Source of the DNA: Convolutriloba macropyga
Lineage: Eukaryota
NCBI RefSeq assembly: GCF_964194025.1
Contig: NC_134470.1
Location: 3,472,001 to 3,536,000, forward strand
Length of the DNA stretch: 64,000 nucleotides
Direction of reading: 5' to 3'
Numbering within the stretch: the stretch's first letter is position 1; each line of letters starts with the position of its first letter. Of this stretch, positions 15,001-49,474 are shown one piece after another. Made by a program: the position numbers and the translations under genes. A model generated the notes under the pieces. That model did not search any database. It was not told where the DNA came from and saw nothing but the letters and a program-made list of their open reading frames with translations.

Positions 15001-15105
15001 CCTGCATCTGCCATATCTCCCACTTCAACGGAGGGTCTGCACTCGGTTTTCCCCAGAAAGGCTCGATGCCGAGTGGGTTCGTTTTTGCTTTGCTGTTTGC
15101 GCCAT
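9075..15105 (-). pseudogene. Fragmented gag-pol of element C
   Basis: Gag (IEPFWGKP, CxxC knuckles), protease LIDSGS (13565-14080), RT 'FLDD' (12586-13065), RNase H 'ELELLGVV/TDHRAL' (12282-12518), integrase HHCC and core (10423-10923). Many stops and frameshifts. Collinear with element A. Confidence 0.93.
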
Positions 15106-15549
15106 GTCGTACACAAACAATATTGTGTACTTGAACTTGCAGTGCCAATCAAAATTAAAATTTATGGTTCGTTTATTTTTGTGGCAAGTGAATTTAACAC
15201 TGTTTTGCAAATGAATTCGCTTAGCGAATCGTCTGCCTGACACTTGTCTATTTTACTCAGATAGTAAAATACGGCTGATAAGGAATAAGATAAATTAGGC
15301 AACTATTCAGAGATGGAAAACAAAGAGAAAGAAAATTTAGAACAGTTAGCAACTGAGAAATCATAACTAAATGTTAACACATAAATCCAAGAGCGGGAAT
15401 TTGGGCAACAGACATAATGTGTGAAATAAAAGTGGTAGACACTGAACTTAAAATGAATTTATGATACTGCCTTCAAGATTAGGTACAACATTAAATAAGT
15501 ACATCGTATAATAATTTTACTGCAACAAATAAAATGATTATGTACAACC
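15105..15549 (-). repeat. 5' LTR of element C
   Basis: Homologous to 8473-8918, first base mutated (GG for TG). Followed by PBS-like TGGCGCAAACAGCA (15104-15091). Confidence 0.92.
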
Positions 15550-26625: not shown

Positions 26626-27120
26626 TGTCATACGGCAATGGATACCCTTCATGTATCCAAATCCGTATTTTAAACTAATTTATTGTTGTATGTTCCTTTT
26701 GAAGGGCGAATGCCATTTTTAGTTCAGTGCTATATACTTCCTCCCATATTTAGCAGTTAAGTCTGTTCATCCCGTCTGTACCGGATATATACTCATTCAC
26801 GTTGTAAACAAATCAAACTTTGCTTCCTTTCTGTATGATTAAAACCTGAACAAACTTTCTTTCATAATCTGTATTATCATTAACTTTCATTCTCCAATTT
26901 GTAGCGCTAACGCTCAGTTCAATTTAATCCTTGCAAAATACCTCTCGTTTTAACTGAGTAGTTCAGTTAGAGTCAATCGCACCGCGATTGCCAAATCTAG
27001 AAAGGCTTTAGTTGAAAGTAACAACTAAATCGTCCATTCGCGACGCAAGTGCCTATCTCAGTACTTACAAAGCCACATTTGCGATTCAATTGACTATACT
27101 CCTTGTGTATGAGTATAACA
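26626..27120 (+). repeat. 5' LTR of element A (495 bp)
   Basis: TG...CA termini; differs from 33130-33622 by about 3 substitutions and a 2-bp indel by eye. Confidence 0.97.
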
Positions 27121-30100: not shown

Positions 30101-32997
30101 TGGGACTCGTTGATTACATTTCTAGAAACCCTTTTGCAAGAGCTAAAAAGATATCTACATACGACGAGCACTTTGTTGTAGCAACAATTTCTAAGATCCG
30201 TGATTCAATGAAACATTTAATTACCAATAGACAAACTACAACTACAAAATTTATAAACATATTAAAGTTGAATTTGCCTTCACCAAAAGTTACACAACCA
30301 TTTGCATCGCGATTAACCATATCAAAAAGCAATAATTCAACTAATTGTGATATAGCATCCGCATCGCAATTAACCAGTTCACCACTGAAACCTCCATTCG
30401 CACCGCAATTAACACATGCTAATTCTAAATTTAATCCGTATTCTGTACATCCATTTGCGCCGCAAATGCCACCTAAATTTACAAAATTACAATTTGTACC
30501 AAATCACTGTAAAGTAAATAATTCACATTCCATTAACAAATTCGCTGCAAAAGAGGTGCAAATTGTAGACAGTAAAGAATGTGAACAATCTGAACAATTA
30601 TCCTTAATACAGCCTATTAATGGTAATAAGTCAAGTAATACACCTAACAACACTAAATTAAGCGCGAAAACACAAATCCACAAATATAAATACCACTCAC
30701 CCAAAAATAACTCGCTTTTTGCCCAAATTCTGCCTAAGAAACACTGCTTTGTGAATAAACTCAATAAACCTTTCATCTCAAATAATTCCATAAATAGTCT
30801 CAGCACGATGTCAAAAGCTAAAGCAACCCGTTCGAAATCGACTCCTACTAAAGCAAGAGTAACGTTCTCCAACACAACACCCTCAACACCCGAATCAAAT
30901 GCAACAACTCATACTGAAACCCCAACTGGTAGTATGATAGACGAAGCTGAGGACATAATGTTCACCGAGACCCTAAACAAGGTGTTCAGTAGGAAATTTC
31001 TAGCAATACTGACTGGAAAAGACGCGATATTGAAAGAAGTAAGGGACTGTGTACTTCGAAATGATGCAGAACGACTACAAGAAATCAGTCCCTACCTCTT
31101 CTCATATTGGAGAGATCTTAGTGTGAAGCACGGGTGTGTCTGTCTAGACGAAAGAATTGCGATCCCAAAGTCCATTAAAGATGCGGTGTTGGAGGACATA
31201 CACTCCACACACCCAGGCAGTTTCGCTATGCTTTCCTTAGCTCAAAATATCTGGTGGCCTTACATCCACAGAGACATTCTGGCAAAGGCCAGTGAGTGCA
31301 AAGCTTGCACAGATATTGGTAAGAATCTAAAATCAGTGATTTCGCACCGCAAATGGACACCTCTACCTAAATGTAGTGAACCAAATGACGAAATACAATT
31401 AGATTTTGGCGGCCCAATTCTAAATGAGAAAGGAATAGAACAATATTTCCTTACTAGTATAGATAGATACTCTAAATATCCTACAGCAGAAATAGTAAAT
31501 AACGCATCAGGTCCAAATGTAATCAAATTCTTAAATAATTATATATATCATCATGGAGTGCCTAGAACTATTAGATTAGACCAAGCTAGATGTTTTACAG
31601 AAGTTTTAAAGAAATCTGAAACATTTTGTACCGAAAACAATATTACACCTATTTATGCACCTGCAAATGACCATAGAGCAATAGGATTAGTAGAACGTAT
31701 CATTCAAACAATTAAACGACAATTAGCTTGCATGAAATCACAGTTAAATAAGAAATTTATTTTAGAAAATTCACTCAAAGCAATAATACAACGACTTCGT
31801 ATATCAAAACAAAAAACAATTACAACCACACCCTTTGAGGCACATTTCGGTAGAAAATGTAACACACCTATATAAAATATTACAACTAAATCTGATAGTA
31901 AAAATCTCAACTATAATGCAATAATAAATTACTATTTAGACGAGGATACAATCCCAGGTCGTTCCTATCTCACAGATGAACAGTGGGCAGATACAGCTCT
32001 TTGTTCCGATACGGAAATTGAGCGAGTCATTTGCGCCGCAAGTACCCGCGCAAGAACGGAACAAGAGAAAAGGAAAGATGGGGAAGAGCGTTTTATAAAG
32101 CCAGATGTCATTCACCGTGCAATTCCCTGCTCTGAAAGAAGCGTACAAGTGAAGTTGGCCCGAAAAATACATGAAAACCAGCGCCAAAAGAAAAACTTGG
32201 ACGGCCTCTACGAAGTATTAGCACCTGGCAGTACAGTGTGCAAAATAAGCCCAACGACGAGCGTCATCAAAGAACCCTCCAAACCTGAAGTACGGGTCAG
32301 AAATTCTGACATCGCCAAATTTGGAACGCGGGCCGAACGGGAAACAACTTTAGCACAGTACATAGACAGACGCCCAAAGAAACTAAACGAAAAAACTCTC
32401 GAACAAAAAATTCAACAGCATAAACGAGATCTTTTTCGAAAAAATACTGGAGAGAAAAAGATAAAGCGAAACAGAAAAAACACAGGCGATGTAAGTGTCA
32501 TTTCGTCGGCACGATCCTGTATATCTACAGCTAGCAATGTCGCAAGATCATTGAAAATGAGAGTACCAAAAAGAAACCCGAAATACGATGAGGCATTCAA
32601 AAATCGACCCGACCTTACACAAATATTAAATTTTAGTCCAATCGCGCCGCAAATGGTATCATCTGATATAGCAGGGCCATCTGGAACGCAAACAACCTCC
32701 TCGACTCAAAAACAACCTACACCCATCTTGAGAAAGACTTCGAAACGCAAAATCACGGTCAGCGATACATCGGATTAGGATACGTCTTCTATTAGAAAAA
32801 GCAAAATGACACTGAAGAAAAAATCCCAAAAATCGCAAACAATTGTCGAAAAAGTTCGTAACACAGAAGGTTACACTGATTACCAAGACACTGGCATTGC
32901 GGGAGGATCAAATCAAGAAGATGAGTACTCGCAAAACCAACCAAGGGAGATGACAGTTCTCCAGGCCGAAAATGCTGAAAATAGCGACAGCGAGTAA
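27120..32997 (+). pseudogene. gag-pol polyprotein of element A (single ORF with 1 frameshift and 3 premature stops)
   Basis: ORFs at 27703, 29791, 32149 and 32806 share one frame. An extra A in the A-run at ~27658-27663 breaks QQKGESVESFYGRL. Two Cys knuckles, protease MIDSGS, RT CFLDD, RNase H CDAS/ELELLG/TDH, integrase HHCC plus D,D,E (QLDF, RLDQ, GLVER). Stops at 29587, 31873 and 32776. Confidence 0.95.
27121..27134 (+). promoter_or_regulatory. Primer-binding site, tRNA-Ser-like
   Basis: TGGCGCAGTCAGCA directly after the LTR, complementary to the 3' end (...UGCUGACUGCGCCA) typical of invertebrate tRNA-Ser. Confidence 0.8.
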
Positions 32998-33129
32998 TCT
33001 TCGATAAAGAAACTTTCATAAACTTCTATTTTATCTATTATTTAATATTTTATTACTTACTAACCGGTGAATATTTATTAGTTTTCTGATTTTAATTTAG
33101 TAAATTAATTTTTCCTCAAGAGGGGGAAA

Positions 33130-33622
33130 TGTCATACGGCAATGGATACCCTTCATGTATCCATATCCGTATTTTAAACTAATTTATTGTTGTATGTTCC
33201 TTTTGAAGGGCGAATGCCATTTTTAGTTCAGTGCTATATACTTCCTCCCATATTTAGCAGTTAAGTCTGTTCATCCCGTCTGTACCGGATATATACTCAT
33301 TCACGTTGTAAACAAATCAAACTTTGCTTCCTTTCTGTATGATTAAAACCTGAACAAACTTTCTTTCATAATCTGTATTATCATTAACTTTCATTCTCCA
33401 ATTTGTAGCGCTAACGCTCAGTTCAATTTAATCCTTGCAAAATACCTCTCGTTTTAACTGAGTAGTTCAGTTAGAGTCAATCACACCGCGATTGCCAAAT
33501 CTAGAAAGGCTTTAGTTGAAAGTAACAACTAAATCGTCCATTCGCGACGCAAGTGCCTATCTCAGTACTCACAAAGCCATTTGCGATTCAATTGACTATA
33601 CTCCTTGTGTATGAGTATAACA
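33130..33622 (+). repeat. 3' LTR of element A, shared with the following partial copy
   Basis: Follows the PPT, matches the 5' LTR, and is immediately followed by PBS and gag again. Confidence 0.97.
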
Positions 33623-34506
33623 TGGCGCAGTCAGCATCGGACTCAAAGAAAACACCACTCCATATAGAAGCATTCTGGGAGAAACCGACAGCAACACCTT
33701 CCCTGACGTGGATCAAATGGACGCAGCAGTGGAAATTGGCCCTACTTCCTAAGGAAGGGATCCAATTGGATACTCTGTTGAGTGATCCACCAGCAACAGT
33801 GACATACCCGCCTGAGCCTACCTATGAAGCACCGGTAGAGAATCACACACAGGCAACGGAAAGAGATCGTAAAGTCCGAAACCAACAATTGAAAGTCAAT
33901 TGGCAAAATCGTTGTGCAAAGATTGAAGAAATCGGGATCCTCTGTGGTGACAAGCCATGGGGAATTTGTGAACAGAAGACAATATCATTGCTATATCTAA
34001 GCATTGGCACAGAGGGGCGACGGATCTTCAAGAGCAAGTACCCTCACTTTCAGATCGAAAAACAACCTTTTAAAGATTTGTGGCGAGCAATGGAGGACTC
34101 ATTCACAAAGGTTCGTAATATAACTTACGATCGCTTCGTTTTCTACTCGTGTAAACAACAAAAAAGGAGAATCGGTAGAAAGTTTCTACGGCCGTCTCAT
34201 AGAATTGGCGGAAAATTGTAATCTTGGTAGTGAAGAAACTACACTCATTCGTGATGCATTCATATTAAATATGCTTGATCACGAAACTCAGAAAGAGTTG
34301 TTGAAGGAAACAGTAGACCCACCAAAAGCATTGGAAATCGCCATACAAATGGAAATGGGAGCACAGAACCAGCAGAAAATTAACCAAAACTTGATGTCAG
34401 GTAATACTTCAGTGAATTACATCAATAATAACTCAATGAGCAATCGCAACGCGAATGGACCTTCCACAAAGCGAGACTCCACTCGCTACGCATCTATCCC
34501 AAAAAA
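33622..34506 (+). pseudogene. Second, truncated PBS-gag copy of element A
   Basis: Apparently identical to 27120-28004 including the same frameshift; breaks at ...ATCTATCCCAAAAAA. Confidence 0.95.
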
Positions 34507-34520
34507 CCGTATGACAAACA

Positions 34521-35077
34521 AGGCACAAGAAAAACGCTCAGAGAGATTTGCTAGTATGAAAAGCAGTGGTTCGTCAAACAAGTTAGTCATAGTTGAGAGA
34601 CGAAGTTGACACGCGAAGAGTGTTTAAAAACGATCAATCAATCTTTCTGATTAGCTTAAATTACCTTGACTTAGTGGAATCGGGATTCTTCCAACTGTTG
34701 AAAGTTGTTTATGATTCTTAATTTTGAATAACAGGAGAAAATTTTACTGTGTTCATTAATTCTCTACTTCGTAATTACTTATTCTGGGGATAACCCTTAG
34801 CTTCAATTCATCGGTGGAAAGAACCGATATTTACTTGGTTGTTTTAATAACTACAACTCAAAGAATTATTATTTCCATTACTTGGAAAAGAAATTAAATA
34901 TTGCGTGCAATAAATATCTTAAATACAGCTTTGAGCGAGCACAGGGGACAATAGTCTATACTAAATTGTCAGATGGACTCACTTTTCTCTGAAGAACCTT
35001 TCAAACTTGATAGAGTTTTGGGCGCCAGCCAGTCCCCAGCTAGAAGCCTTCTAACGATAAAAGTACAAAATTCTACA
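34521..35077 (+). repeat. 5' LTR remnant (3' portion) of element B
   Basis: Homologous to 48711-49294 (aggcacaagaaaaacgct...aaaattctaca) with scattered substitutions and a ~21-bp indel. Confidence 0.93.
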
Positions 35078-35078
35078 G

Positions 35079-35097
35079 TGGCGCTCCTGGGTGGGCT
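35079..35097 (+). promoter_or_regulatory. Primer-binding site, tRNA-Asn-like
   Basis: TGGCGCTCCTGGGTGGGCT 1 nt after the LTR, resembling the complement of the eukaryotic tRNA-Asn 3' end (...AGCCCACCCAGG..GCCA). Confidence 0.7.
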
Positions 35098-35376
35098 TTC
35101 TGACAGATTAAAATAGATTAGTTTTTACGAGTTTGGGTCTCAATCCAAGGTGTGTACAACATACTTCCTCAAAATGGATTCAATACTCGCCCAAAGAAGC
35201 AAAGAACACCTATCTGAATTGCCGAGTACAAATCAAATAACTCAAACCAGAAGTCGGGCTGATAGATTAAGAGAACTACCCAGACTCCGGCGAGATTATG
35301 AAGTACGAAAAGAAGTGCATTCGCAAAAATTAGAAGAACACTCTAGTTTAAGTGGTTAAGCAATTACATAACGAAA

Positions 35377-36528
35377 ATGGCGTTGCAAACGGAAGATATA
35401 CAACGATTTGCCCATTCAGCCATTCAAGCTGCGGACGCACTGAATAGTCAAGGACTGCAAGGGCCAGGTGCACACCAACCTGACTGTTTTCCTAATCCGA
35501 TATACAAAATTTGGGTGGATTGGAAAAAACATTTTGTATGCATTGCGGAGTCGACTCGTTGGGATGAAGAACAAGCAATGGCTTGTGTCCCAACCTGCCT
35601 CACAGGCTGGGCCCTTGACGAATGCACTGCAATGCCCAACCACTTTCGAGAACAGGAATATGGGCATCCGGCACCTACTCTGGAGCGATTGTTTGAATAC
35701 TTAGACCCTCGAATGATGCGATTTCGAAACCAACGAACTGCTCGAGCCGAGTTCAAAAACTTTATTCAAGGTGAAAAGGAACGAAATCAGGATTTTTCAA
35801 GGAGAATACGGTCCATCGGGGAGGTAGCAAACCATAACATGAATGCTGCAACCCGTGGCGATATGAACCGTGAACAGTTTATCGATGGACTCTATGACGC
35901 TGAAATCTAAGAATTTCTACTTAGAGAAGATCCCCAAAACTTCTCGGCTGCTATAAATAGGGCACTGAGCCTTGATAGTGTAGCACGTAATTCTTGTATG
36001 CAACAGCGACGAAGGTTAGCGTCATTGTGATCAGTTGTTGAAGACCCCGTTGAGACTCAGAGATATACTCAGAGTAATGAGATGATGCAGAGAGGCAAGG
36101 CATCAAGAGTGTTCGCAACTGCGGAGAATTCTACGGATCTTTCGGGGTCTGTCAATGCTAAGATTGATCAACTAGTAAACAGTTAGGCCGAGTTTATGAA
36201 GAATATGTCAAATATGATGAGCAAATTCGTGACTTCAGTAATTCCGAAGCAATATGAAGTCTCACATAGTGAAAATAAACCAAAACAGGAAAGCGACGAG
36301 AAACGTCTGTACAATCCTTATCCGCCTGGTAGCCGTTACGGTCAACAATTCATCAGTTCCAAACCAAACAATGCCCAGTACAGTGGTGGACCAGCTCAAA
36401 AAAACAGCCTCGGCAGACGATTAGGAGCTGCGGGAAGGCAGTGTTTCCAATGTGGCCAGGAAGGTTATTTTGTTAAGGATTGCCCTGAGCGCCAAAACCA
36501 ACAACAGACCGGTCCTTTTAACTACTAG
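35377..36528 (+). pseudogene. gag of element B
   Basis: Capsid-like W..W..HF..IA...W and QGEKE MHR-like segment, degenerate knuckle CFQCGQEGYFVKDC, in-frame stops, TAG at 36526. Confidence 0.85.
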
Positions 36529-36574
36529 AGGCCGGGAGGGCCACAGTTTTTCGTAAAGAGGCTCTATCCCGGCC
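36516..36574 (+). promoter_or_regulatory. -1 ribosomal frameshift signal between gag and pol (mutated slippery site plus stem-loop)
   Basis: T TTT AAC in the gag phase, one change from canonical T TTA AAC. 7-nt spacer, then stem GGCCGGGA (36530-36537)/TCCCGGCC (36567-36574) with inner GGGCC/GGCTC. The -1 frame is open for ~49 codons afterwards. Confidence 0.7.
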
Positions 36575-36689
36575 GAATTCAAAGCAAATAGACAAAAAGA
36601 CAACATTAAAGCATATTTTGAAGCAAGAAAAATTAAATTTTGCGACGGAAAGGCCAAACAACAGCACGTAGCACAAATACAACCGCCAT

Positions 36690-39600
36690 AGATGATGAGA
36701 AAAAGTTTGATTCGTCGGATTTTGATGAAGGTTCTGAAGCAGCCGTGGTTGATGGCATAGTGAATGACTCGATAATTTTGGATGACTCGACACGGAAATG
36801 ACTCGACACGGAAAAATTGATTGGTACGGGGGCATCAACAAATATAATGCAAGCAGAAAAACTCTTCAGCTCTGATCGTTTTGCGAGAAATATCCCATAT
36901 AAAGGCCGCTTAGAGTCAGCCGATGGAAAGACCATAAATGTTCTTGGTCGCGCAATATTGGAGTTAAAGCTGGGTTCTATATGCGTGGAAATACACCTTC
37001 TAGTGTTGCAGAACTTGAAGCCTCAGATGATACTTGGCCTCAAGGAAATGAAACGCCATGGTTGTACAATTGACTTTAGATCAAACGAAATGTGGACAGG
37101 CAGCAAAGAAAGTTAGGCGGTGGTAATGCGCATGGTTTCTCTGACCTCAGTTGGCAGCTACCGTTAGTGTCGCGAAACTGAAATTGACCTGTCAATGCAA
37201 GATACAAAGCTTGTCAACGATCATCAGCTGAAGGCAGTCACTGGCGCTAGTCCCAAAGAAAACGACCATCTGATGGCAGCGCAACACTTTAGAAAAACAC
37301 AGGTCAAAGATTCAGAAAGCAATTCTCTAAGTGAAACCGAAGATGAGGAATGGACAGACACTGATAATGAGGTTGGGAACTGGGTTACTTACACAGTCTA
37401 TAAAGCCCAAGATCATCCCACTCTAGACCAGGAAGTTGATCAAATTTTGAAATTATCTGCACCGGGCGTTTCTGGTGTTGCTCTCGATCGGCTGAGAACA
37501 CTAGTGCGAGAATATCGGTATGTATTTGCGTTGAAAAGCAATGAACTTGGATGCACCGACATTGTTCTGCATCAAATTAAAACAGGTGATACCCCACCCA
37601 TCAAAAAACATCCACACCGTATTTCGCCGGCCAAGATACCTATTATCCAAGAAGAACTCAAGAGCATGCTGGAGAAGGGAGTCATTCAGTCTTCATAGAG
37701 CCCCTACAGCGCTCCTATTGTGCTTCAGAAGAAAAAATATGATAGCTGGAGATTCTGCGTAGACTACCGCAACCTTAACGATGTTACGGTGAAAGACGCC
37801 TTTCCTATACCAAAAATAGATCTGAGTTTCGATGCTTTGAGGGGAGCGAAATTTTGTTCTCTCGAATTAGCAAGTGGCTACTGGCAGGTACCGGTTGTAC
37901 CAGAGGATAGACAGAAAACAGTTTTCGTCAAACCTGATGCTGGGCTGTATGAATACATTAAAATGCCTTTTCTATCTAATGCCCCCGGATCCTTTCAAAG
38001 GCTTATGAACAATCTTTTCAAAGATCACCTCTGGAAGTGGGTTCTAATTTTTCTTGATGATGTTTTGGCGTACGATTGGACTGAGGAAGAACACTTCAAA
38101 CACATTGAAGTTATATTCAATCTGTTGCGAGCAGCAAGTTTGAAACTGAAGCCTAGGAAATGCAGACTTCTTCAGCAGCAAGTTGTATACCTCAGTCATG
38201 TTATCGATAAAGATGGAGCTCGACCAGACCCTTAAAATGTTGCTGTTGTCAGAGAATGGCCAGAACCAAAAACCGTTAAACAAGTACGGTCATTCGTTGG
38301 ATTTTGCAATTACTATCGGCGCTTTGTGAAAGACTTTGCACAAATTGCTCGTCCTTTACATGCATTAACAAATAAAAAAGCTCGATTTGAGTGAACTAAC
38401 AAATAAAAATGCTCGATTTTGCAATCACTATCGGCGCTTTGTGAAAGACTTTGCACAAATTGCTCGTCCCTTACATGAATTAACAAATAAAAATGCTCGA
38501 TTTGACTCCCTGTTGTCAAATGGCATTCGATCGACTGCGTCTCGAACTAGCTACAGCATATGTCCTACAGTTCCCTCGGTATGACTGCCCCTTTATCATT
38601 GACACAGATGCAAGCAACGTATAAGCAACGTCAGTCTGGGTTCAGTACTTTCAAATTTCATTGATGGCGTGGAACATCCTATAGTATTTGCAAGTAGGAG
38701 CCTGAGTAAGACCGAAACTATGTACTCTACAACGAAGCGGGAATCCCTGGTGGTAGTTCAGGCTTTGAAATGGTTCAAACATTATATATGGGGACTCAGC
38801 TTTGTCATACGTACAGATCATGCCAGCTTAAAATGGTTATTCAGGCAAAATGCAGACGGCATGACGTTCAGAATGCTCCAACATTTGCAAGAGTTCAATT
38901 ACAAAATTGTTCATCGCGCGGGCAACAAACATGCCAATGCGAATGGGTTCTCTCGGATGACGGAAGAAGAGCCTGAATGAGAGCCGGGCGAAAAAGAACA
39001 AGTAACGGTGCAGTGTCCTGAACCTCAAGAAATCAAAGAAGCCCTAAAAAGAGTTCGTGAACGTTGTGCTATGGTTGACGCTATCACAGAAACCATAGAT
39101 GACGAAAATGAAGAGGGGGTCGCTATAACATGGACTCGCAAGACTCAGATATAGAACGGTTGCAGCAGGAAGACGAGGCAATCAGCCGTATTTTGTACTG
39201 GGCACCAACAGGATCAGAAAGTAGCTGCTCGCCTCTGGGCCCTAACTTAATTTCAAAAGAACAGGCAGTTCACCATGGACCTGAAGTAGTAGCCTACTGG
39301 TCACGGTGGTCAGAGCTTGTTCTTAAGAATCAAGTTTTGTACAGGAAGTCGTATCAACCAGAGAAGAACGAACCGCATTTGCAGCTGATTGTACCTGTTT
39401 CTTGCAGAAAAAAAATTTTAGATCAACTTCACACTTCCCCAGTGAGTGGAGGTCATTTCAAAATAGAAAGAACACTATTGCGAATAAGGCAGAGATTCTG
39501 GTGGCCCTTCATGAGGCGTGACATTGAGAAAAAAACTTCTTGGTGTCTTCCATGTGCAGCTCGGACCACGGCAGGCAGGCAACGTACCGCATAATTAAGT

Positions 39601-40900
39601 CCCTTCGAAGTTGGTATTCGCTTTCACACGGTTGCTGCTGATATACTATGACCAGTTACACTAGCCGCACGGTCAAGAGCGAAGTAAATTCTTGTTATGA
39701 AGGATTTGTTCACAAAACATGCAATCAGTGTTCCACTTGTTGTAACCTAAGCAAAAGATGTGGCGAAAGAAATTGTAGAATGCTGGGTCCTTAATTTTGT
39801 CGTGCCCGATGTACTTCACACAGACCAACGAAAAAACTTTGGGATTGACTTGATTAAAGAAATCTGTAAATTGCTTAAAATGGACGAAGCAAGAACTTCT
39901 CCGTATTACTCTCAGGGAAATGTTCAAGTGGAACAACTTATCCGTGTAATTGCCGATGTTCTCTCAAAATATTGCGCCAAAAACCATCGAGATTGGGACA
40001 CAATGCTGCCTTATGTCAATTTTGTCTATAATACGACTATTCATAGGACGACAGGAGCCACTCCGTTTAGTCTCGTCTATGGACAGGAGTGCCAATATCC
40101 TATTGATCTGTTCTACCCGAAGCCTCACCATCAAGAAAAGACCCAGAACGAGTTTGTTGACTGGCTCGATAGGCAATTTAGGGAGGCCCATTCTCATGCA
40201 CGGGAGTTTTTGGGAGTAAATCAAAACCGACAAAAAAATCACTTTCATAAGGAAGTTTCTGGAAAACCATACGAAGTCGATGACGAAGTGTGGGTTTTCT
40301 CAAAACATAAAGCTAAATCAAAAAAATTCTTTCTTCCGTGGGAGGGACTTTACATTGTCCTTGAGAGAACTTCGAAAGTTAACAACAAAGTTAGTAAACC
40401 CCAAAAGCGTGATAAATGGCTTATCCTCCACTACAAACTCCTCAAACCATTCGTGGAAGGGGAACCGAAAACGAGCGAGCGTAGAGCCACACCGTTTTGT
40501 TCCACGAATTTTTATGAGGAACCACTAAAAATTGACGAGTGGGAGCAATTGGATCCGGACCCAATTCCCCGGCCGCCAATATTGGTGGCAAGAAATCGGA
40601 TACAAGTCCCGCAGCCAGCCGTGCAACAGGAAAATGAACTAATCAACAGTCCTATAGTCGAACAGCCAGCTGATCAATTGGGCGATCAGGTCGCCCCGGA
40701 TACAAATAGCCGTGAAAATGATCCGGAATACCAAGGACATTTGGTTCAAAGGCAGTTGGAGTCTCCCAGCGTCGGGTACAGCAGATCTCCAGACGCAGAG
40801 GTTGAACAAACAACACGACCGATTAACCAGAATTAAGTGGAAGAACCCGTTGCGCTACGCCGATCGACAACGATCCGAGCACCGGTCATACGACTGGGAA
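36690..40900 (+). pseudogene. pol of element B (PR-RT-RH-IN), fragmented
   Basis: Protease LIGTGAS (DTG mutated), RT WRFCVDYRNLN / FLDD, RNase H RTDHASLKW, integrase LH..GGH..C..C, HTDQ, YNTTIHRTTGATPF, and GPY/F-like WEGLY. Confidence 0.93.
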
Positions 40901-41000
40901 TCGATGAATAAACACTTTTTCCTCGTTTACTTAAATTCGTTACCCGGATCCCTCTTCCTTGCTTTTTATGAATCGCAAGGCTTTGGTCGGATTTGAATGA

Positions 41001-41025
41001 CCTAATTTAACGTTTTTTCTTTTAG
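41001..41025 (+). promoter_or_regulatory. Putative env splice acceptor
   Basis: Branch-like CTAAT, polypyrimidine tract and TTTTAG at 41025. The env frame is open from 41027 through a hydrophobic signal-like stretch. Confidence 0.65.
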
Positions 41026-41026
41026 A

Positions 41027-43402
41027 GTTAACGCGGTCACGACAGGAAAAACGGACAGATTTCTGACTCTGAGGCTACTCTTCCTATTTCCCATGCTGAG
41101 ATGTGCTATCTGTTTAACTACTAACCATACAGCTGGCGCAGTCTTCACAACGGAAAACCCTGTCATCATTGCGAGTGCGCTGGAATCAACCTGGGTATTG
41201 GTGCCACTACCAGTCCTACCTGCCCTCAACTTAACATCTCTGGACATTGCTTTCCAGGAATTCCAATACGAATTTGCAATGCGATGGAAGAAGCATCATG
41301 GACGGTTTTGCAAAAACTTTTTTACCACTAAAGTTTTGATGAATACGACATATCTTGCACTGAAGGGATTGGAATAGGAAATGCTAGAAATTGATATTGT
41401 TTGTACTGAAATGTGGGAAAGGGCTGCAACATAATTAAATGGAACAGAATCAGTCTTGTCGAGGTCAAAGCGATTCGTCAAACCGCTGCTAGGTGGGATA
41501 GCTGCTGCTATTGCCCTTGCGCCAGTCCGAAAAGCTTGTTTTTGTCAGTACTTCTCTTTCTTCGGATTGTGTTGCGGTGCAGACTTGGATAGACTTGGTA
41601 AAGAGACAGCATTTCTGGACGGAGCGGTACCAACACTCGCTCCTGAATCAGGGGAACGAGTCCACCTGCTGGGCCACTCATTAATCAAAACTCAAGGGCA
41701 ATTGAAGATGATCATTCATAATTCTAATGACAACTTCCATAAGATCAGGAATGTTTTGGGAGAGCTTATCAATAACACCAACATTGGAGTAACACATTGG
41801 GGGGCCTGCTACAACAACAGACAGAAATCAGCAGTGGTCGCTGCTCAGTTTAATATGGGAATGACAAACTTCACCCAAACTATGCTTGCTTTGAGAGCAG
41901 AATGGGTGGCATTCAAAGTCGGACTTCACAATTTTGGCTACATCCTAGATGACGCATTGAGTAGTTTAGCTCGGGGCTATATTCCAGCAACACTCGTACC
42001 TTCAAAAGTTTTGCGACAAGTTCTTAACGGGCTCAAAGTTGACAGGATGCAGGAAGCTATACCCCGTTCTGATTTAATGACCTATTACGGCTTTGAACTA
42101 GTAGAGTCAACAGTATTTACAGAAACAGCCGTAAATGTCCTGATAAACGTGCCTGTACACCACACTAACGGATTTCATAAAGTTTATCGCGCAGTTCCAG
42201 TACCTCAACCAATTGAAGACGGTTCGACAGCGACACGATACAGTTTCTCGCGAAGTTACTTATTGATATCGGAAAGAAAAGATAAATTTGCCGAAGTTAT
42301 GGAGGAGAAACTCATTTCACATTGTAGCGGCAGTAATCGTCTTAAACTGTGTCTAAAACTTTTTTCAATGTCACGAAGTGGAGAATCTACGTGCCTTTCT
42401 AGTCTGTTTTTCGACTTGCAAACATCAGTTCTAAAATTTTGTGCACAGCAGGGTGTAGCCCTACCGGAAGAACCTTACGCGGAGTACTTGGACGACTCAA
42501 CCCACTTGGTTTACTCGCGATCCAGCGACTACAGACTACTCAACTACAGCTCACAAGCCTTCGATACTGGAGAGTGGATCTGCGGCTGCAAAAGTTGCCT
42601 AATTCGATCACCTTGCAAAGGACGTATAGAGGACCCCAGTGGTAGTTTGGTATTGTATCCGGACCCAAGAATTTGCCAGTACGAGACCGGACTTGTTGTA
42701 AGGATTCAACAACACCCCTTACTGCGGACTTTGTTCGGTGAATTGCACGAAATGGAGGCACAACTAGCTGGAATGAAAATCCCAGATGTGTTTCGCGAGG
42801 AAGCTCCCAGTCAAATGCTGGAGACTTTACGTTTGAACTTGGTTGATCTACCCAAAGGAATTGTAGATGAAGAAGCTATGAAAACCATCGCGAAACCTTT
42901 TGCACAAGGAAATATCAATCAGCATGCACCATTCCACTGGCGGGCTTACCACAGTGGACCTGTCAGCTGGTTTGTATGGTTTGTATTAGCTGCAATCTTA
43001 GTAGTTGCACTCTGGATGATGTACACAGGACTCTGCCGAGTTATAGTGAACAAAGCGTGTATCGAAGGGAATACGGCTGGTACTCAGACGAGTCCGAGAG
43101 CCAGAAGGAGTAGATACAATTGTTGGGAGCGCCTACTAAGAGGAGATGCGGGTTTGAGTGGACAAGGGCCGATGAATTTCAGAATGATTGATCGCATTCG
43201 AGTGCAACCTTACTCTGAACGCGACGGGATGGAATCAACTCAATTGGAAGACGACCTTGATGACTCTTTCATTTCGACACCTCATCACCCCCGGATCCAG
43301 TGGCAAAACGCAGAGGAGCAGGGACTACCGAGAGAAGTTGGCGTGCGTCAAGATTTTATAAACTGTAGAAGGGAAGGGAAGAGTGAGCCGATGACAGCGT
43401 AA
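41027..43402 (+). pseudogene. env: Envelope (class I fusion, baculovirus F / errantivirus env-like) glycoprotein with two in-frame stops
   Basis: ORFs 41093-41377 and 41456-43402 are in one frame. Signal-like FLTLRLLFLFPMLRCAIC, furin site RSKR then fusion peptide FVKPLLGGIAAAIALA, heptad region, 'LARGYIPATLVP', 'LINVP', 'YRAVPVP', Cys-rich ectodomain, TM WFVWFVLAAILVVALWMMY, long cytoplasmic tail. Confidence 0.88.
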
Positions 43403-43789
43403 ACTGTTAGTTATCAACTTCTATTTATTTATCTTTTGCCGATCTTATTAAGAAAAGTGCTTTAGTTGGTTCTATTACCCCTTTAACTGTAACTAGGAAA
43501 ATTAACTTTTATCTTACATTTATTCATGAGTAGTGTTCCGGTGCTTTCATTTATATACTCATTTGTTCAGTTACACAATTGTATGGTGTACTCGACAAAT
43601 CCCGATACCAATAAGATTTAACTTGCGCACTAAGGCTGAGCGAAATTGAGGTCGGCAAACAGTTCAACTCGCAGGATAAACAAGCAAATGCCTAAATAGA
43701 TAAGAAAAACACGTGAAAATTGAGTTGTCTAGCTGACCCAGAAAACAAATCATACTGCCCTCAGTAACTTTCAAAGCTAAGTACCAAAA

Positions 43790-44344
43790 ATGAGTGGCAC
43801 ACACTTCGAGTGGCACTGCTTCACTCTTGGCCGTCTTTTTAAACTTAGAGATGTCAAAGATACATGGAGCGGTCATTTGGTGGATCTCATAGATGGGAAC
43901 GTAGTTTTTTTGGAAGTTGGGGAACCAGAGTTCTACTCCTTTCTTTCGATTCCCTGGTCAACAGCACCACGACTACTTATCGAGGCGGGGACTAACGATT
44001 AAGTGGAGGATAGAAAACCGGAGGATAATTCAGATACCCCCGACCAAGACTACTCAGTAGAAGAAAACTCATTCCAAGTAAAACACTCCCTCCATCGCCC
44101 TCTAGCTCCAAATGAATTAATAGAAATCATTATTCGACCGGTAGAACGCGAAGAAGCGGATACGTCGGTGGAAATAAACAGGGTTCTCTCTGACTCCACG
44201 GCAGCGGAGCCAGATTCTGAACAAGATATTAGCGACGAAGGTGGACCTGAGATGCCTCCTTTCTACGCACGACGGGACAATCGAGAAGGTGAAATTGAAT
44301 GGGAAGATGTTAGCAGCGACGAATTAACCGACAATTATATTTAA
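43790..44344 (+). pseudogene. Accessory ORF of element B, ~184 aa with acidic C-terminal half, one internal stop
   Basis: ORFs 43790-44002 and 44003-44344 are contiguous in one frame separated by a single TAA. Protein-like composition; function unknown. Confidence 0.6.
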
Positions 44345-44975
44345 CCGATCGTTCCAACTTAAGCGGGCAAAACGTGTCTCTATTTGAATTTGTTATCTAG
44401 GAAGTAATTAGTACATTTAGCCACAAAACCAGAGATCAAAATCAGCGCCTATCAAAGCTATAACCCCGAAAGAACAACATTTCCATCATGGTTCTTATAT
44501 TTTGGGAGTTCAAAGTTCTAGATTGGGTTGTCGTCTTCCAGCGGGTACAATTTTGCGAGGATAGTTTTGTTATTTTACAACTGGAAGACGAAAACGAATT
44601 TTTGCTTTTACTGGATAGTGCGGCGGGCAAATAAGTTAAGTCGGCTACGTTATCTAACTGGGTCAAGCCTTTGACGAATGAACCGTTACCAGCATTCCAA
44701 TCAATACTATATTCTCCTTGTTTGAAGGATGTGTCCACGCAAACGGAAAAGAAGAATATCACTTGGACGCCAGCGATGTGGGAAAAACAAATAAATAAAG
44801 TAGTATATGGACTTCGTGCTAACAGGGTTGAACTCTGCCGTTTCCTGATAACTTTTATACAAAGCTTACTATAGTTATAATTATACACTCAGTTTGTAGA
44901 GTATTAATTAAAGTAGCAACAGCATAGAAAAAAAGGGGGTTTGAGGATAGAATTACAAGTTTAAATAACTCAAAC

Positions 44976-45394
44976 TCAGTTTTCGTCTACCACCCACCAG
45001 TTCTGCCAATCTTGCGGCGTCGAGAAAGGCCACGGCCTTTCAATGATGGTGGGTGGTACGAAGGCTATTGCATCGTACACCGGCTTTTTGAGGGCGCTGA
45101 TAGCGTGGGTACATTGAAAAAAGACGGGAGGAGTTGGCCTCATCCGCACCAATTCCTCATCCCACCGCTGCAGCTCCCGCACAAAGTCCCGGTGATCCGA
45201 AGATTCTGGCTCAACTTCGACGCTTTCGCCGCTTTGCTTGAAGACGACCATTCTGGAAACACTGGGGTTTATGGCCCTTATCCGGTCCAGATTGACGAAC
45301 GTGAAACCGACCGCCACATCATTCTGGAATCGGACAGGGTACTCCCCAAATCCAGCAATTGCCGTCGACAAGCTACTTATAGTTGATTGAGGAC
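44976..45394 (-). CDS. Antisense accessory ORF/exon of element B, unknown function
   Basis: GC-elevated open frame of ~139 codons ending ...PQDWQNWWVVDEN. No in-frame ATG at its start, but a tgtttttag acceptor at ~45395 suggests a spliced terminal exon. Confidence 0.5.
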
Positions 45395-45896
45395 TAAAAA
45401 CACACTTATGTCTAAATGAACATATATAATATATACAAACTTATTTAATCATAACAGGATTTGGAAGAATAGGAAAACAGATTTTTTTGTGAATTGATTT
45501 ACTATCTAGACAATTAGAACTGAGGCGTTGAGTTGTAGAAGATCACTGGAATCAATTGTGGGTGTTATTTTGTTCTGGAAGAACGACGATTGAGGCTGCT
45601 AAAGCTCACAGGAAAACCATGTAGAAATTGAAAAAAAAGAACTGTCAACGCACAAAAAAAATTTATTATATAAAATACCTTTCTAATTGGCTGGTGCGGA
45701 TAGATACAAGGGGAGAAAAAAAAATTTTTCAAGCACTTGACGGCCGACAGGACGGTTAATCAATTTCTTAAATGGAACAAAATTTAAGTTTAAATAAGTT
45801 CAAATTAAACACCACCACAAACTTTGTAGAACCAGGCGAAAATTAACCTACACTTAGAGCAACTTTCTCAAAGATTATTCGGGGGAATAATGATGC

Positions 45897-45908
45897 AGAA
45901 GGGAAGGG
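45897..45908 (+). promoter_or_regulatory. Polypurine tract of element B
   Basis: AGAAGGGAAGGG directly abutting TGTAGAATTT. Confidence 0.7.
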
Positions 45909-46400
45909 TGTAGAATTTAGTTCCTGCGTAGTTTATTGACACCTTTGTTAGTCGCAACTTTAACTTTCACAATCAGAACTTTTGCGGGTAAAATAAAGAG
46001 GTCCGAATTTTGACAAGTCTCAAATACAAATATGCGTCTTTACATTAGGACTAATGAAACACACACTTCGGACTCAAATAACTTGTTCTAACAAAGATAA
46101 GACCAAATTAGCACACGAATGACCAACAATACCAAAAGTGGAGTTTTGCACGGCAAATAACACCTGATAAGAGGCACACAAAATTGTGGCGCGATTTGGG
46201 CCAAGGCAAATAAGAGTTGGAAAATCTCGAGGTCATTCACATTAAAACTTAGCCCGTGGAAACTACAAACAAAGGAAATCAATTTATTGTCCTTATTTTT
46301 TCATTAAAAACTGAACTTAGCTAACTGCTATTATTGGCCTTGCTCCATATTGGCCTTGCTCCATACCCTTATTCGTCAGGCTTTAATATCTTGTAGCACT

Positions 46401-46816
46401 ATGGACAACAAAATCCTAAAGGCACGATATGGAAAGGCCCCAATAAAACTACCTCCAGTGGCTGGCAAAACGCCCTGGGCAGAGCACATTCGAAACTTCA
46501 AGACGAAGGCAAAGAGGCGAACAAAAAACGGCAAGTCTAACAAGGGAAAAAAGACCCTCGCAGCGAAACAAAACCGGCAGCCACAGCAATAAAGCGAGCA
46601 ACAACAGCCACCAAACGATCAACAACAGCAGCAATGCGAACAACAACAGCAACGCGAACAACAGCATCAACCAGCTTGTGATAGCGACTTGTCCAAAGAC
46701 GAAAGAGCCGAGCAACAAGCGCTATTGGAAATAAAGAAGAGAGTGCAAATCGAGCGTCCATATGCAGTGTAAAAGCAAACTTTAATTTAATTAGATATCT
46801 GTCATGTGTGTGCTAG
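46401..46816 (+). pseudogene. Small basic (K/R-rich) plus Gln-rich ORF with one internal TAA, within the inferred LTR
   Basis: ATG at 46401 MDNKILKARYGK...KTKAKRRTKNGK. TAA at 46590 lies amid CAA/CAG codons and the frame continues SEQQQPPNDQQQQQ... to TAG at 46814. AATAAA at ~46826. Confidence 0.55.
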
Positions 46817-46860
46817 TCCGGTTTAATAAATGATGTCGTCGAAATTGAACAATTTACCCC

Positions 46861-47754
46861 TCATTTTTTTGGCTTAACACGAGTAACAATAAAACAATGC
46901 ATTGTTCCACCGCTCAGGCCGGCCTTTAAGTAAATTCCTCCTCTATTTGGGCCCACTTTGTTTCCAGTGTAACAATCCCAGTGGGCTTGCTCGATTTCAT
47001 CGGTCTCATAAAACATATAAATATTAGTTCTAAAGGTTCGGGCTAGCATTCTCAAATCTGTTGTTGTAACGAAATTAAGATCATCTGGGCCATTAATAAG
47101 AGGGGCAGCGCCCATCAGTTTTAATAAGTGGCGGTCCGGGCCTTCTTTTTGTAAAGAACGAATTATCTCTTCATTTTTTCCGCCTTGATTACGGTTTCCG
47201 GTCAGAATTGTGCTAAGTGCAGCGCACACGCAATTGTAATCGGGATCAATAGTGTCCACAGTTTTAGGGATAAAAGAAATAGGATCTAACGAAGGGGCGT
47301 TCTTGAAGCAATTGTTTTCCAGTAACGGCCTTTTGTTAATAACTAGGCCTAATTCATAACAAATTCTATCCAGTGTAAGGCGAGAAGCATGAACTAAGGG
47401 ACCGGTAAAACGGCGATGAGTAAATTTTTCATTGCAATAATCGCAGTTACGTACTATTTCTCGAACGATAGGCTGGGCTCCCTGGACATCGTAAGATTGT
47501 TTAACAAGCCGTTCGAGCTTAACTGCTTTAATATGCTCGTGGTCTCGATGTAACTTTTGTATGATAATTTTTGCATTCCTGGAATGCAACACTTTAAATC
47601 CAGTCTTTTTATTAATAAAAATTAGTTTTGGTTTGCAAAGCCGACTGCATAATTGTTTAAAATTGTGCCTTTTCAGTTGATTAAAACTGACATCTAGTGG
47701 AAATGATCCACGGCGATGAAATTTGAGAATAGACTGATATAATTGGAAATCCAT
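46861..47754 (-). CDS. Integrase-type H2C2 zinc finger fused to an OTU-like cysteine protease (297 aa), antisense within element B
   Basis: Uninterrupted ATG-TGA ORF. N-terminal LYQSILKFHRRGSFP, then LHRDHEH...VREIVRNCDYC. C-terminal IDPDYNCVCAALS (cf. DGNCLFRALS), TTTDLRMLARTFRTNIYMF, and IYLKAGLSGGTMHCFIV (His loop). Confidence 0.75.
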   Translation of the reverse strand: MDFQLYQSILKFHRRGSFPLDVSFNQLKRHNFKQLCSRLCKPKLIFINKKTGFKVLHSRNAKIIIQKLHRDHEHIKAVKLERLVKQSYDVQGAQPIVREIVRNCDYCNEKFTHRRFTGPLVHASRLTLDRICYELGLVINKRPLLENNCFKNAPSLDPISFIPKTVDTIDPDYNCVCAALSTILTGNRNQGGKNEEIIRSLQKEGPDRHLLKLMGAAPLINGPDDLNFVTTTDLRMLARTFRTNIYMFYETDEIEQAHWDCYTGNKVGPNRGGIYLKAGLSGGTMHCFIVTRVKPKK

Positions 47755-49474
47755 TGGCGCTCTAAGTTAGTAGGTAAATAAAAGCTAGTAGGAATTAAGG
47801 TTTAATGAATTTGGTAGTTTGTGATTTGCTAGTTTTCTGGTATTTGCGTAAGTTCATTGAGCAAACAAGAAATGGTGTGCATACTATTTCCTTTACTGAG
47901 TTATCAGAGCATGATATATCGATCTGCTACTCTCTGGTACGGCTTCAGGGTTCCCAATTGCTTCAAACTAAGCGTCTAGAATTTCACCACCCCCCGCAAG
48001 TCTTGAAAACCCTACTTCCTCAAGTCCGATAACCATGAAATTTTAACTGATCACTCTTAGGACAATTCCTTACACATTGAAGAAAACAACGGGCTTTTTC
48101 CGGTACCCAAAACCGTTCTTTTGGCCTTTGAAGTAAAACAAAAAAAATAGATGAAAGGCGAATTTCTTATACTCATTTGAAAGAAACGACACTTTTTCTA
48201 GAGTCAAAACATTTTACCAAGGCGTCGTTCAGAGTGGAAAGTTGAGATAAATTACCTGTCAATTCCAAAGTATTAGCACTGAGACTGTTCTACAAGGGAG
48301 TAAGGGACAGAAAGAGCTAAGGTTTCTTTTTCCTTTTTTTGATGACTCTAAGGAAATGGTTAAAATTTTGTTTAAAACGGAACACTTCTCCAGCCTAAAT
48401 GGGAAACAAAGGTATCATAGTTTAAATTGGATGCGTATCCGTTACTTAGGGAGGAAAAAAAAGCAAGCGCGCGAAAATTTGCACACATATTGCTCAGCAT
48501 GAAACATGGATTGTGCCATATTCTGAAATTATCAAACCGAGTTAAACAAGCAACTCCGGTCATCTCGAACAAACATTCACATAAGAAAGGTGGCATCTTG
48601 TGATTGACCTTCCACGCCCACTATAACACTTAGACGTTAGGTCAGAATGTTCTAAAAGGAACGACACGTTACTTTTTGCTGATAAAAAACTGATCAGGTT
48701 GAGTACCCTTAGGCACAAGAAAAACGCTGAGAGAGAGATTTGCTAATCTGAAAAGCAGTGGTTCGTCAAACAAGTTAGTCATTGTTGAGAGACGAAGTTG
48801 ACACGCGAGTTCAACTTTCTTAGGTAAAAAAGAGTGTTTAAAAACGATTAATCGATCTTTCTGATTAGCTTAAATTACCTTGACTTAGTGGAATCGGGAT
48901 TCTTCCAACTGTTGTAAGTTGTTTATGATTCTTAATTTTGAATAACAGGAGAAAATTTTATTGTGTTCATTAATTCTCTACTTCGTAATTACTTATTCTG
49001 GGGATAACCCTAAGCTTCAATTCATCGGTGCAAAGAATCGATATATACTTGGTTGTTTTAATAACTACATTTCAAAGAATTATTATTTCCATTATTTGGA
49101 AAAGAAATTAATTATTGCGCGCATCAAATTTCTTTTATATACAGCTTTGAGAGAGCACAGTGGACAATAGTCTATACTTAATTGTCAGACGGACTCACTT
49201 TTCTTCGAATAACCTTTAAAACTTGATAGAGTTTTGGGCGCTAGCCGGTCCCCAGCTAGAAGCCTTCTGACGATAAAAAATACAAAATTCTACAATATAT
49301 ATATATGTATATATATAACCGAGGGTTAGGTACGAGTTTACAATAACGCTTTTTTATCCCTTGAGAAGGGTCAATAACCCAAAAAAGATCAGGTTTTTAT
49401 TGGGGCGAGGTTCCAATTTTGAATCGGGTCCTAGTTGCTTTTGGAGAGCTAATAAGCAGTAATCAACACCCCAC

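Follow-up and report, generated by a model that had tools for sequence, protein, structure and literature searches.

The complex retroviruses of vertebrates are marked out by accessory, LTR-encoded and antisense genes: sag of MMTV and nef of HIV lie in U3, and HBZ of HTLV-1 is read antisense from the 3΄ LTR. Invertebrate env-bearing Ty3/gypsy elements have been described with gag, pol and env. In a survey of 1512 such elements ('ancient errantiviruses'), the column for the primer-binding site (PBS) has Asn 6 times, and the insect errantiviruses (gypsy, ZAM and Idefix clades) are given a tRNA-Ser, -Lys or -Leu primer (PMC13524379). A term search of the text and supplements of that paper returned neither an acoel host nor accessory genes. 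The bdelloid LTR retrotransposons, as described in PMC5408684, carry one ORF3 per element, which is env, GDSL or DEDDy.

In this work, we have analysed a window of 64,000 nucleotides of genomic DNA from the acoel worm Convolutriloba macropyga. Positions 34521 to 49294 are a decayed, 5΄-truncated copy of a multicopy Ty3/gypsy family, here called family A. Its architecture is, almost certainly, that of an env-bearing Ty3/gypsy element with gag, pol, env and extra genes on both strands; these number three to five, and three are better backed than the other two. The features, by position in the window, are:

26626..34507, plus strand: unrelated env-less Ty3/gypsy neighbour (LTR, internal region, LTR, partial internal region)
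34521..35077, plus strand: truncated 5΄ LTR, the terminal 557 bp of a 3.4-kb LTR, matching the 3΄ LTR terminus at 524/557 positions (94.1%, ungapped)
35079..35097, plus strand: PBS, 19 nt, complementary to the 3΄ end of host tRNA-Asn(GTT)
35377..36528, plus strand: gag, 383 codons, CCHC knuckle at the C-terminus, 3 in-frame stops in this copy
36477..40911, plus strand: pol, PR-RT-RNase H-integrase, overlapping the end of gag
41039..43402, plus strand: env, about 776 codons; this copy lacks the start codon and has 2 in-frame stops
43790..44344, plus strand: ORF-A, 185 aa, acidic tail, no family, 1 stop in this copy
44488..44790, plus strand: ORF-B, about 102 aa, weakly supported, 1 stop in this copy
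44976..45380, minus strand: ORF-C, about 135 aa, no family; this copy lacks the start codon
45897..45908, plus strand: polypurine tract (PPT), directly 5΄ of the LTR start
45909..49294, plus strand: whole 3΄ LTR, 3386 bp, TGTAGAA...TTCTACA
46401..46772, plus strand: ORF-D, basic/Gln-rich, about 117 aa, within the LTR, 1 stop in this copy
46861..47754, minus strand: ORF-E, 297 aa, within the LTR, open in this copy, Cys175/His286

Family A has the hallmarks of Metaviridae: TG...CA LTR ends, a short target site duplication (TSD), a PBS and a PPT. Its LTR is about 3.4 kb long, the two LTRs of a copy are 96–100% identical, and 14 of 20 loci show an exact 5-bp TSD; the insertions are recent and the element has been recently active. 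An initial reading of the window made without database searches (the sequence-only reading) had proposed a 17–18 kb element, primed by tRNA-Asn, representing a lineage of complex env-bearing Metaviridae with an accessory cassette. The nine copies with both LTRs whole measure 17,210–17,550 bp, the PBS pairs with host tRNA-Asn, as it does in sister families B, C and D, and not with the tRNA-Ser, -Lys or -Leu of insect errantiviruses, and the lineage itself, at about 17.5 kb, is supported. The 3΄ LTR of the window copy aligns end to end with both LTRs of full copies and with solo LTRs. Its 5΄ LTR is truncated at 34521, where it adjoins a partial copy of the unrelated element at 26626..34507, so the left TSD cannot be checked. 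The best named relatives of family A pol are Ty3/gypsy. A quick RT tree, drawn without curated insect errantivirus, Gmr1/Osvaldo, Cer and Tor reference elements, places families A to C inside a clade (SH-aLRT 98) made up mostly of unnamed proteins, with 412-named and erranti-like proteins outside it and the neighbouring element far away.

That gag, pol (PR-RT-RH-IN) and env are present is borne out by domain matches and reading frames. Selection was measured as omega on variants shared among family A copies, which are not phylogenetically independent. Six of 11 copies keep the gag frame open (omega 0.02), and another family A copy has a TTTAAAC heptamer upstream of the gag stop. Pol has 1429 codons in open copies (omega 0.20), where the Ty3/gypsy-type order PR-RT-RNase H-integrase is found above Pfam cut-offs; the window copy is interrupted by many stops and frameshifts and carries a duplication of 115 bp. 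Env (omega 0.11) has a signal peptide, an RSKR furin site, a hydrophobic fusion-peptide-like segment, a TM segment and 8 sequons, and by these features counts as the third-ORF envelope-like glycoprotein that defines an errantivirus in the operational sense of PMC13524379. Baculo_F was weakly matched in 5 of 18 Env homologues (E up to 0.1, best 8e-4), the query itself falling below cut-off; a PDB search with the env profile gave nothing under E 0.2, and a viral-contig scan with env confirmed none of 40 pattern matches. The proposal that env is spliced from internal exons failed, as it is a single ORF whose codons 1–745 are uninterrupted in 7 of 13 aligned copies, which rules out a splitting intron. 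In all four families an AG lies 0–14 nt 5΄ of the env start.

In the window copy, about 5.9 kb separate the env stop from the end of the element. The sequence-only reading had this length right; 3.4 kb of it is the 3΄ LTR and only 2.5 kb is internal. Since the 3΄ LTR spans 45909–49294, the basic/Gln-rich ORF-D and the minus-strand H2C2-OTU ORF-E, both correctly recognised, sit inside the LTR. The region is neither variable nor a set of nested insertions: all 15 other copies, from 12 loci, are collinear through it, which at 12/12 argues against nesting, and no internal TSDs or terminal repeats were seen within it.

Checking ORF conservation across family A copies revealed purifying selection on ORF-A (open in 10/13 copies; omega 0.19, p 1e-5), ORF-C (8/13; 0.15, p 6e-4) and ORF-E (0.20, p 2e-10), at values similar to pol, whereas non-coding U3 gave values near or over 1. 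These three ORFs are, by such comparisons, very likely coding. Family B has a homologue of ORF-A (shuffle p 2e-4), and the acidic ORF previously read at 44003–44344 is real, but is only the 3΄ part of ORF-A, cut off by its one stop. The signals of ORF-B (open in 9/13; omega 0.36, p 0.09) and ORF-D (10/13; 0.43, p 0.04) fail multiple testing, and part of each signal is shared by mirror frames. The similarity of ORF-B to that family B ORF has p 0.047 and to ORF-A p 0.21; ORF-B may be a remote paralogue of ORF-A's N-terminal domain. ORF-C is antisense and convergent with ORF-B, in keeping with the convergent pairs noticed earlier; it had no usable match in the ESM Atlas, and the antisense ORFs in families B and C showed no homology to it. 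It is the survivor among the antisense internal ORFs or exons proposed: frame 43664–43957 is neutral (omega 1.10), and frame 44442–44888, open in only 3/13 copies, mirrors ORF-B and is better read as sense. Also rejected as genes were the plus frame over ORF-C (no ATG, open in 5/13) and an 81-codon ORF-F in the LTR (omega 1.04).

The structure model of ORF-E (pLDDT 90.8) joins an integrase-N-terminal-like (H2C2) domain to an OTU fold. Among the matches listed by Foldseek against the PDB, 33 of 35 are OTU-fold proteases (best E 3e-4), with viral and human OTU domains at the top and the MLV integrase N-terminal domain lower down. Fold E-values are modest. In the model, Cys175 starts helix 175–185 and His286 lies on strand 284–295; both align with a Pfam-confirmed OTU protein and are retained in most of the distant homologues. 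No third (Asp/Asn) triad residue is evident, the His+2 position being hydrophobic in families A and C. ORF-E is below both Pfam cut-offs, OTU (PF02338, 0 of 14 members) and H2C2, and has no rve match, H2C2 running into OTU within 297 aa. No inverted repeat of at least 40 nt flanks it, the ESM Atlas gave no usable match, and PDB sequence searches with the OTU profile, and with the family C protein ORF-D΄, gave nothing significant. ORF-E is probably an active OTU protease. It has no stop at 6 of 9 apparent solo-LTR loci, and within family A its pS is 0.20–0.22 versus 0.03 for pol. Both ORF-D and ORF-E have omega below 1, with no sign of positive selection. Family A's own ORF-D was rejected as an H3 mimic, its H3 likeness being insignificant (shuffle p 0.05 and 0.15), and homology between it and ORF-D΄ was not detectable (p 0.36–0.76).

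Accessory content varies among families A to D. An antisense ORF-E lies within the LTR in three of the four (A, C and D, 26–36% identity). The pair is not essential, because family B has been recently active without ORF-D and ORF-E and some family C copies lack ORF-D΄. In family C, ORF-E΄ has a GT-AG intron of variable length between conserved exons, whose site and phase recur in a RefSeq host gene model. Four read runs of unknown kind over the family C LTR show no joint at the intron, the reads being apparently cut at a repeat there. ORF-D΄, the positional counterpart of ORF-D, opens with the histone H3 N-terminus, MARTK[NQ]T: the MARTK start is present in 17/17 frames examined, occurs elsewhere among 3387 Met starts only in host H3, and at this true N-terminus 6–7 of the first 9 residues match H3. 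Between family C subfamilies, dS is at least 1.5 for D΄/E΄ versus 0.09–0.16 for pol/env, a divergence at least 10-fold greater. Three distinct cassette types exist in family C, each in several recent insertions with near-identical backbones, and their flanks are 86–94% identical. A single-copy host gene is an ORF-E homologue that lacks both catalytic residues and is possibly a domesticated descendant.

We propose that the genomic RNA would be primed by tRNA-Asn, that Gag-Pol would arise by a -1 frameshift, and Env from a subgenomic RNA spliced upstream of the env start. ORF-C and ORF-E may be read off antisense transcripts initiated in the LTR, which would allow the family C intron to survive reverse transcription. 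ORF-E may act as a deubiquitinase tethered to DNA or chromatin by its integrase-N-terminal-like half, stripping ubiquitin marks or rescuing element proteins, and ORF-D as its basic nuclear partner, the family C version being a putative H3-tail decoy for chromatin readers or writers. Location in the LTR would double the pair at each integration, leave it in solo LTRs and let it be swapped as a module between backbones. Taken whole, the explanation that the accessory genes are under purifying selection and that the LTR-borne pair counters host silencing is the one towards which we lean, with some confidence; for the counter-defence role by itself the sequence evidence leaves the balance about even.

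The accessory genes could also be real and ORF-E serve the element's own integration, as a YPYY-H2C2-OTU module of Ginger1 type, captured by the element, through which DNA repair is recruited or tuned. Ginger1 transposases join YPYY, H2C2, DDE and OTU, often with introns, and a repair role has been proposed for them (PMC2836005); ORF-E resembles such a protein minus the DDE core. Integration housekeeping, however, does not predict cassette alleles at least 10 times older than their backbone, an H3-tail-like partner, or the absence of ORF-E from the active family B, and we consider this reading rather unlikely. Far less credible is a post-env region of passenger DNA, made up of functionless fragments that were nested or captured. 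In favour of this, most accessory ORFs belong to no known family, ORF-B and ORF-D have weak selection signals and the accessory content differs between families; but the 15 collinear copies, free of visible internal TSDs and terminal repeats, the omega of 0.15–0.20 in three ORFs and the ORF-E Cys/His retained at saturated dS speak against it, and for ORF-A, C and E these sequence data largely refute it.

The deep divergence of the LTR cassettes is a separate matter. It could stem from one-off recombination with unsampled sister families instead of selection acting repeatedly for alternative alleles. Genomes packaged together routinely undergo template switching, and related pol, env and ORF-E-like proteins exist outside this genome; the three cassette types, each on near-identical backbones in several recent insertions and between flanks of 86–94% identity, are less easily explained in this way. 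We give recombination a substantial chance, somewhat short of even. More doubtful, and offered tentatively, is the fullest version of the counter-silencing reading: an acoel lineage of complex enveloped Ty3/gypsy elements that would have acquired, independently of vertebrate retroviruses, an exchangeable LTR anti-silencing module with an H3-tail decoy and an OTU deubiquitinase tethered by its integrase domain, a spliced antisense transcript and ancient alleles, while the host would have domesticated a catalytically dead copy as its counter-measure.

Our results suggest a separate origin of the complex layout within Metaviridae, in a host phylum not listed in the 1512-element survey, as far as its searched text goes (PMC13524379). 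They offer candidates for the conflict between an animal retrotransposon and chromatin silencing, namely a predicted OTU enzyme and, in family C, a putative H3-tail mimic, and a route by which whole genes may be scattered through the host genome via solo LTRs, with one possible domesticated descendant. A literature search, with subscription papers and bioRxiv supplements outside its scope, found no account of this arrangement.

By analogy, the layout may be likened to that of complex vertebrate retroviruses, with accessory genes that follow env, lie in the LTR and run antisense, but the pol of the acoel element is of Ty3/gypsy type and not of Retroviridae. The predicted OTU fold of ORF-E recalls viral OTU deubiquitinases (nairovirus L and others), which, unlike it, are not located in a retroelement LTR. 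As with the ARSK histone mimic of influenza NS1 (PMC6028506), an H3 N-terminal motif is found in a small viral protein, although in the putative mimic ORF-D΄ it is at the true N-terminus and within a retroelement LTR. ORF-E shares with the Ginger1 transposase, as described in PMC2836005, a YPYY-like and H2C2 N-terminus, an OTU C-terminus and introns, but has neither DDE core nor terminal inverted repeats and is carried within an LTR. Plant Retand, in the account of PMC11963269, likewise has a long region from pol to the 3΄ LTR and conserved antisense ORFs of presumed regulatory role; it differs in its plant hosts, its TRP28 domain, its ORFs outside the LTR and its lack of env. The bdelloid elements (PMC5408684) are also invertebrate Ty3/gypsy elements that captured enzymatic extra ORFs, whereas the acoel element has env plus several ORFs, antisense and LTR-internal. 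With the ancient errantiviruses described in PMC13524379, the acoel elements share the gag-pol-env order, LTRs, a tRNA PBS and an Env that has a furin site, a hydrophobic peptide and a TM, and are set apart from them by gene-bearing LTRs of 3.4–3.8 kb and as many as five additional ORFs across the two strands.

Our results show that the element at 34521-49294 of the window (C3:3472001-3536000) belongs to an unusual env-bearing Ty3/gypsy family (family A) with a gene set like that of complex retroviruses, an architecture that is well supported, the expression and functions of the genes being predictions from sequence. When window positions 43400-48700 were used to query the host genome (43 matches, from 35 scored of 511 candidates), at least ten other copies covered the query fully and at least five further copies did so apart from a single deletion of about 180 bp. 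As four copies sit in one tandem array, these 15 copies represent 12 other loci. About 20 more matches start at query position 2510, window position 45909, and the LTR boundary was therefore placed there:

45909-49294, 3' LTR, 3386 bp, TGTAGAA...TTCTACA, directly preceded by a polypurine tract

The 5.9 kb assigned by the sequence-only reading to the region after env does contain ORFs, but 3386 bp of it are the 3' LTR, and the basic ORF-D and the H2C2-OTU ORF-E lie inside that LTR.

Self-comparison of the window revealed a 557-bp repeat at 34521-35077 and 48711-49294. The first 2.8 kb of the 5' LTR are missing, and its remainder adjoins a second, incomplete copy of an unrelated Ty3/gypsy element without env (26626-34507). 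We consider the family A copy an older, decayed insertion, since its LTR pieces match each other at 94.1% (ungapped) and it shares about 92% identity with other family A copies. The neighbour consists of an LTR, an internal region, a second LTR and part of an internal region, with a 1380-bp repeat at 99.6% identity; a short filler, from a deletion or an assembly join, connects it to the truncated LTR. A second LTR-like pair (8471-8917 and 15103-15548; 91% identical, 6.6 kb apart) encloses a region resembling this neighbour on the opposite strand.

Nine family A copies with both LTRs whole measure 17,210-17,550 bp, within the 17-18 kb expected. Recent movement of the family is indicated by LTR pairs of 96-100% identity and by exact 5-bp TSDs at 14 of the 20 loci examined. 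The anticipated tRNA-Asn primer is borne out by a PBS of 19 nt complementary to the 3' end of host tRNA-Asn(GTT); five of the six genomic matches retrieved for that end are called tRNA-Asn. Gag has 383 aa and a CCHC motif, and pol (1429 codons) codes for PR, RT, RNase H and integrase; their overlap at a TTTAAAC heptamer suggests that Gag-Pol would be made by a -1 frameshift. The env gene, previously read as internally spliced, is a single ORF of about 776 codons that encodes a signal peptide, an RSKR site, a hydrophobic peptide and a TM, and its codons 1-745 are open in 7/13 copies; Baculo_F matches 5 of 18 env homologues, weakly. An AG lies 0-14 nt upstream of the env start in family A and in all three sister families described below, a position that would fit expression from a spliced subgenomic RNA. 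The tandem array (C2:17258283-17309232, L023-L028) comprises four family A units with five common LTRs and a 5-bp TSD at both ends; the same 2.2-kb deletion in each unit joins pol and env into a single frame of 1513 codons.

For selection analysis, 13 natural copies were aligned and variants present in at least two copies were classed in all six frames.

Omega of family A frames (shared variants, 13 copies)
gag: 0.02
pol: 0.20
env: 0.11
ORF-A (+), internal: 0.19, p 1e-5; open 10/13
ORF-B (+), internal: 0.36, p 0.09; open 9/13; fails multiple-test correction
ORF-C (-), internal: 0.15, p 6e-4; open 8/13
ORF-D (+), in LTR: 0.43, p 0.04; open 10/13; fails multiple-test correction
ORF-E (-), in LTR: 0.20, p 2e-10; open 10/13

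Accessory genes on both strands are thus upheld for ORF-A, ORF-C and ORF-E (omega 0.15-0.20, from copies that are related and with mirror frames that share part of the signal, though containing stops). Singleton variants are nearer neutrality (0.5-0.8), and no frame was significant in a non-coding U3 stretch. The antisense frame at 43664-43957 is neutral (1.10) and was rejected. So were an 81-codon ORF-F, also neutral (1.04), and the frame that mirrors ORF-B on the minus strand, which is open in just 3/13 copies. ORF-A and ORF-B face ORF-C in the 2.5-kb internal part, and ORF-D faces ORF-E within the LTR. The interval that separates the stops of the convergent frames ORF-D and ORF-E (46782-46830) contains the conserved motifs ATTAAA (minus, 13/13 copies) and AATAAA (plus, 12/13), possibly facing polyadenylation signals, in which case genomic RNA would need read-through there.

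Protein searches uncovered three further env-bearing families, with the same PBS:

Family B: 11.9 kb, 1.15-kb LTRs; ORF-A homologue (p 2e-4), one antisense ORF, no ORF-E
Family C: about 17.5 kb, 3.3-4.0-kb LTRs; two internal ORFs under purifying selection (omega 0.10-0.15)
Family D: 16.3 kb, 3.7-kb LTRs; one copy examined

In a quick RT tree (124 of 125 rows, families A, B and C in and family D out, no curated references), the three belong to one clade of 28 rows (SH-aLRT 98), most of whose proteins are unnamed and which is separate from matches named 412-like or erranti-like. Two pol relatives of this clade, P0132 and P0133, have a GDSL domain; one of them is listed under a bacterial MAG, whose bin probably contains animal DNA.

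ORF-E homologues (26-36% identity) lie antisense in the LTRs of families C and D. In family C the homologue is interrupted by an intron (AG|GTAAG...AG, about 60-78 nt). This intron differs between copies in length and sequence, sometimes by a number of nucleotides not divisible by three, whereas the exons are conserved. Retroelement introns can survive only if they lie on the strand complementary to the genomic RNA, and the family C intron therefore supports the existence of a genuine antisense gene that is spliced. With the confident ORF-E structure model (pLDDT 90.8), Foldseek retrieved from PDB almost nothing but OTU domains, such as nairovirus OTUs and those of OTUD1, 3 and 5 (best E 3e-4); the N-terminal domain of MLV integrase ranked 44th and 50th, and a viral structure library agrees with the OTU result. 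Among 1.84 billion representatives, a profile search found 55 matches. Some of these have the same two-domain build, and another match is a Pfam-confirmed OTU protein (E 3.5e-4) to whose catalytic residues Cys175 and His286 align. Pfam OTU itself matched no ORF-E member, and no third triad residue is evident in ORF-E. The lineage probably extends to other genomes, since the best host matches of at least one ORF-E homologue (P0048) and one related env (P0103) reach only 32% and 50%. ORF-E-like, env and pol relatives are perhaps co-located on contigs of another assembly (P0048 with the P0104 cluster, P0103 with the P0122 cluster), which weakly hints at the same layout outside the host genome.

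The host also has a single-copy ORF-E homologue, the RefSeq gene model LOC142351752 (C13:16567360-16578691, L091-L092), whose predicted product XP_075260017.1 from Convolutriloba macropyga matches the genome at 99-100% in two exons. Its intron of about 10.4 kb shares site and phase with that of family C, with which the homologue groups weakly (85/46); Ser and Lys replace the catalytic Cys and His, and gag, pol and env found no match in the 50 kb examined around it. The simplest reading would be domestication from an LTR, and the product may be a pseudo-enzyme.

ORF-D' and ORF-E', the family C counterparts of the LTR-borne frames, are deeply diverged. ORF-D' starts with MARTK(N/Q/S)T in 17/17 frames, host H3 with MARTKQT, and among 3387 Met starts no other begins with MARTK (chance from composition, about 3e-5 per ORF). 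The motif is retained via synonymous changes in three subfamilies, with ORF-D' proteins just 40-44% identical (for example L042:3961-4287, L040:4399-4779 and L045:8222-8557, three deeply diverged alleles). A later ATGG/TGG motif resembles H3 residues 31-34; two family C copies examined have no ORF-D'. Family A ORF-D has no detectable kinship to ORF-D' and its H3 likeness is not significant, which limits the mimic claim to family C. Between subfamilies, dS is 0.09-0.16 in pol/env vs 1.5 to saturated in D'/E' (omega 0.07-0.23 where computable), with flanks 86-94% identical, so that the pair behaves like an exchangeable module of long standing. The trend is also present, more weakly, in family A. 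The family C cassette occurs as three old alleles (L040-L049, L052-L056, L070-L077) on backbones with dS near 0.1.

What would the LTR-borne genes do? Ty3/gypsy replication biology is established, and the replication steps of these elements would follow it. The predicted OTU fold, the H3 N-terminal motif and the unusually deep allelic divergence point the same way, and we propose that the LTR-borne genes may counter host silencing. The main rival explanation is that ORF-E serves the element's own integration; the Ginger1 transposase (PMC2836005) has a build like that of ORF-E, which lacks Ginger1's DDE core.

Extra ORFs are carried by bdelloid elements (PMC5408684) and antisense ORFs by plant Retand elements (PMC11963269). 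Term searches found no acoel and no accessory genes in the text parts and supplements covered of a metazoan errantivirus survey (PMC13524379), and no small, accessory or additional ORFs in PMC12992720. Among the papers listed by literature keyword searches, with subscription papers and bioRxiv supplements outside their scope, none describes a Ty3/gypsy element whose LTR encodes an OTU protein or a mimic of H3. Influenza NS1 has an H3 N-terminal motif (PMC6028506), as occurs in family C ORF-D'. Viral deubiquitinases have the OTU fold that is predicted for ORF-E. The gene layout of family A presumably resembles that of MMTV sag, HIV nef and HTLV-1 HBZ.
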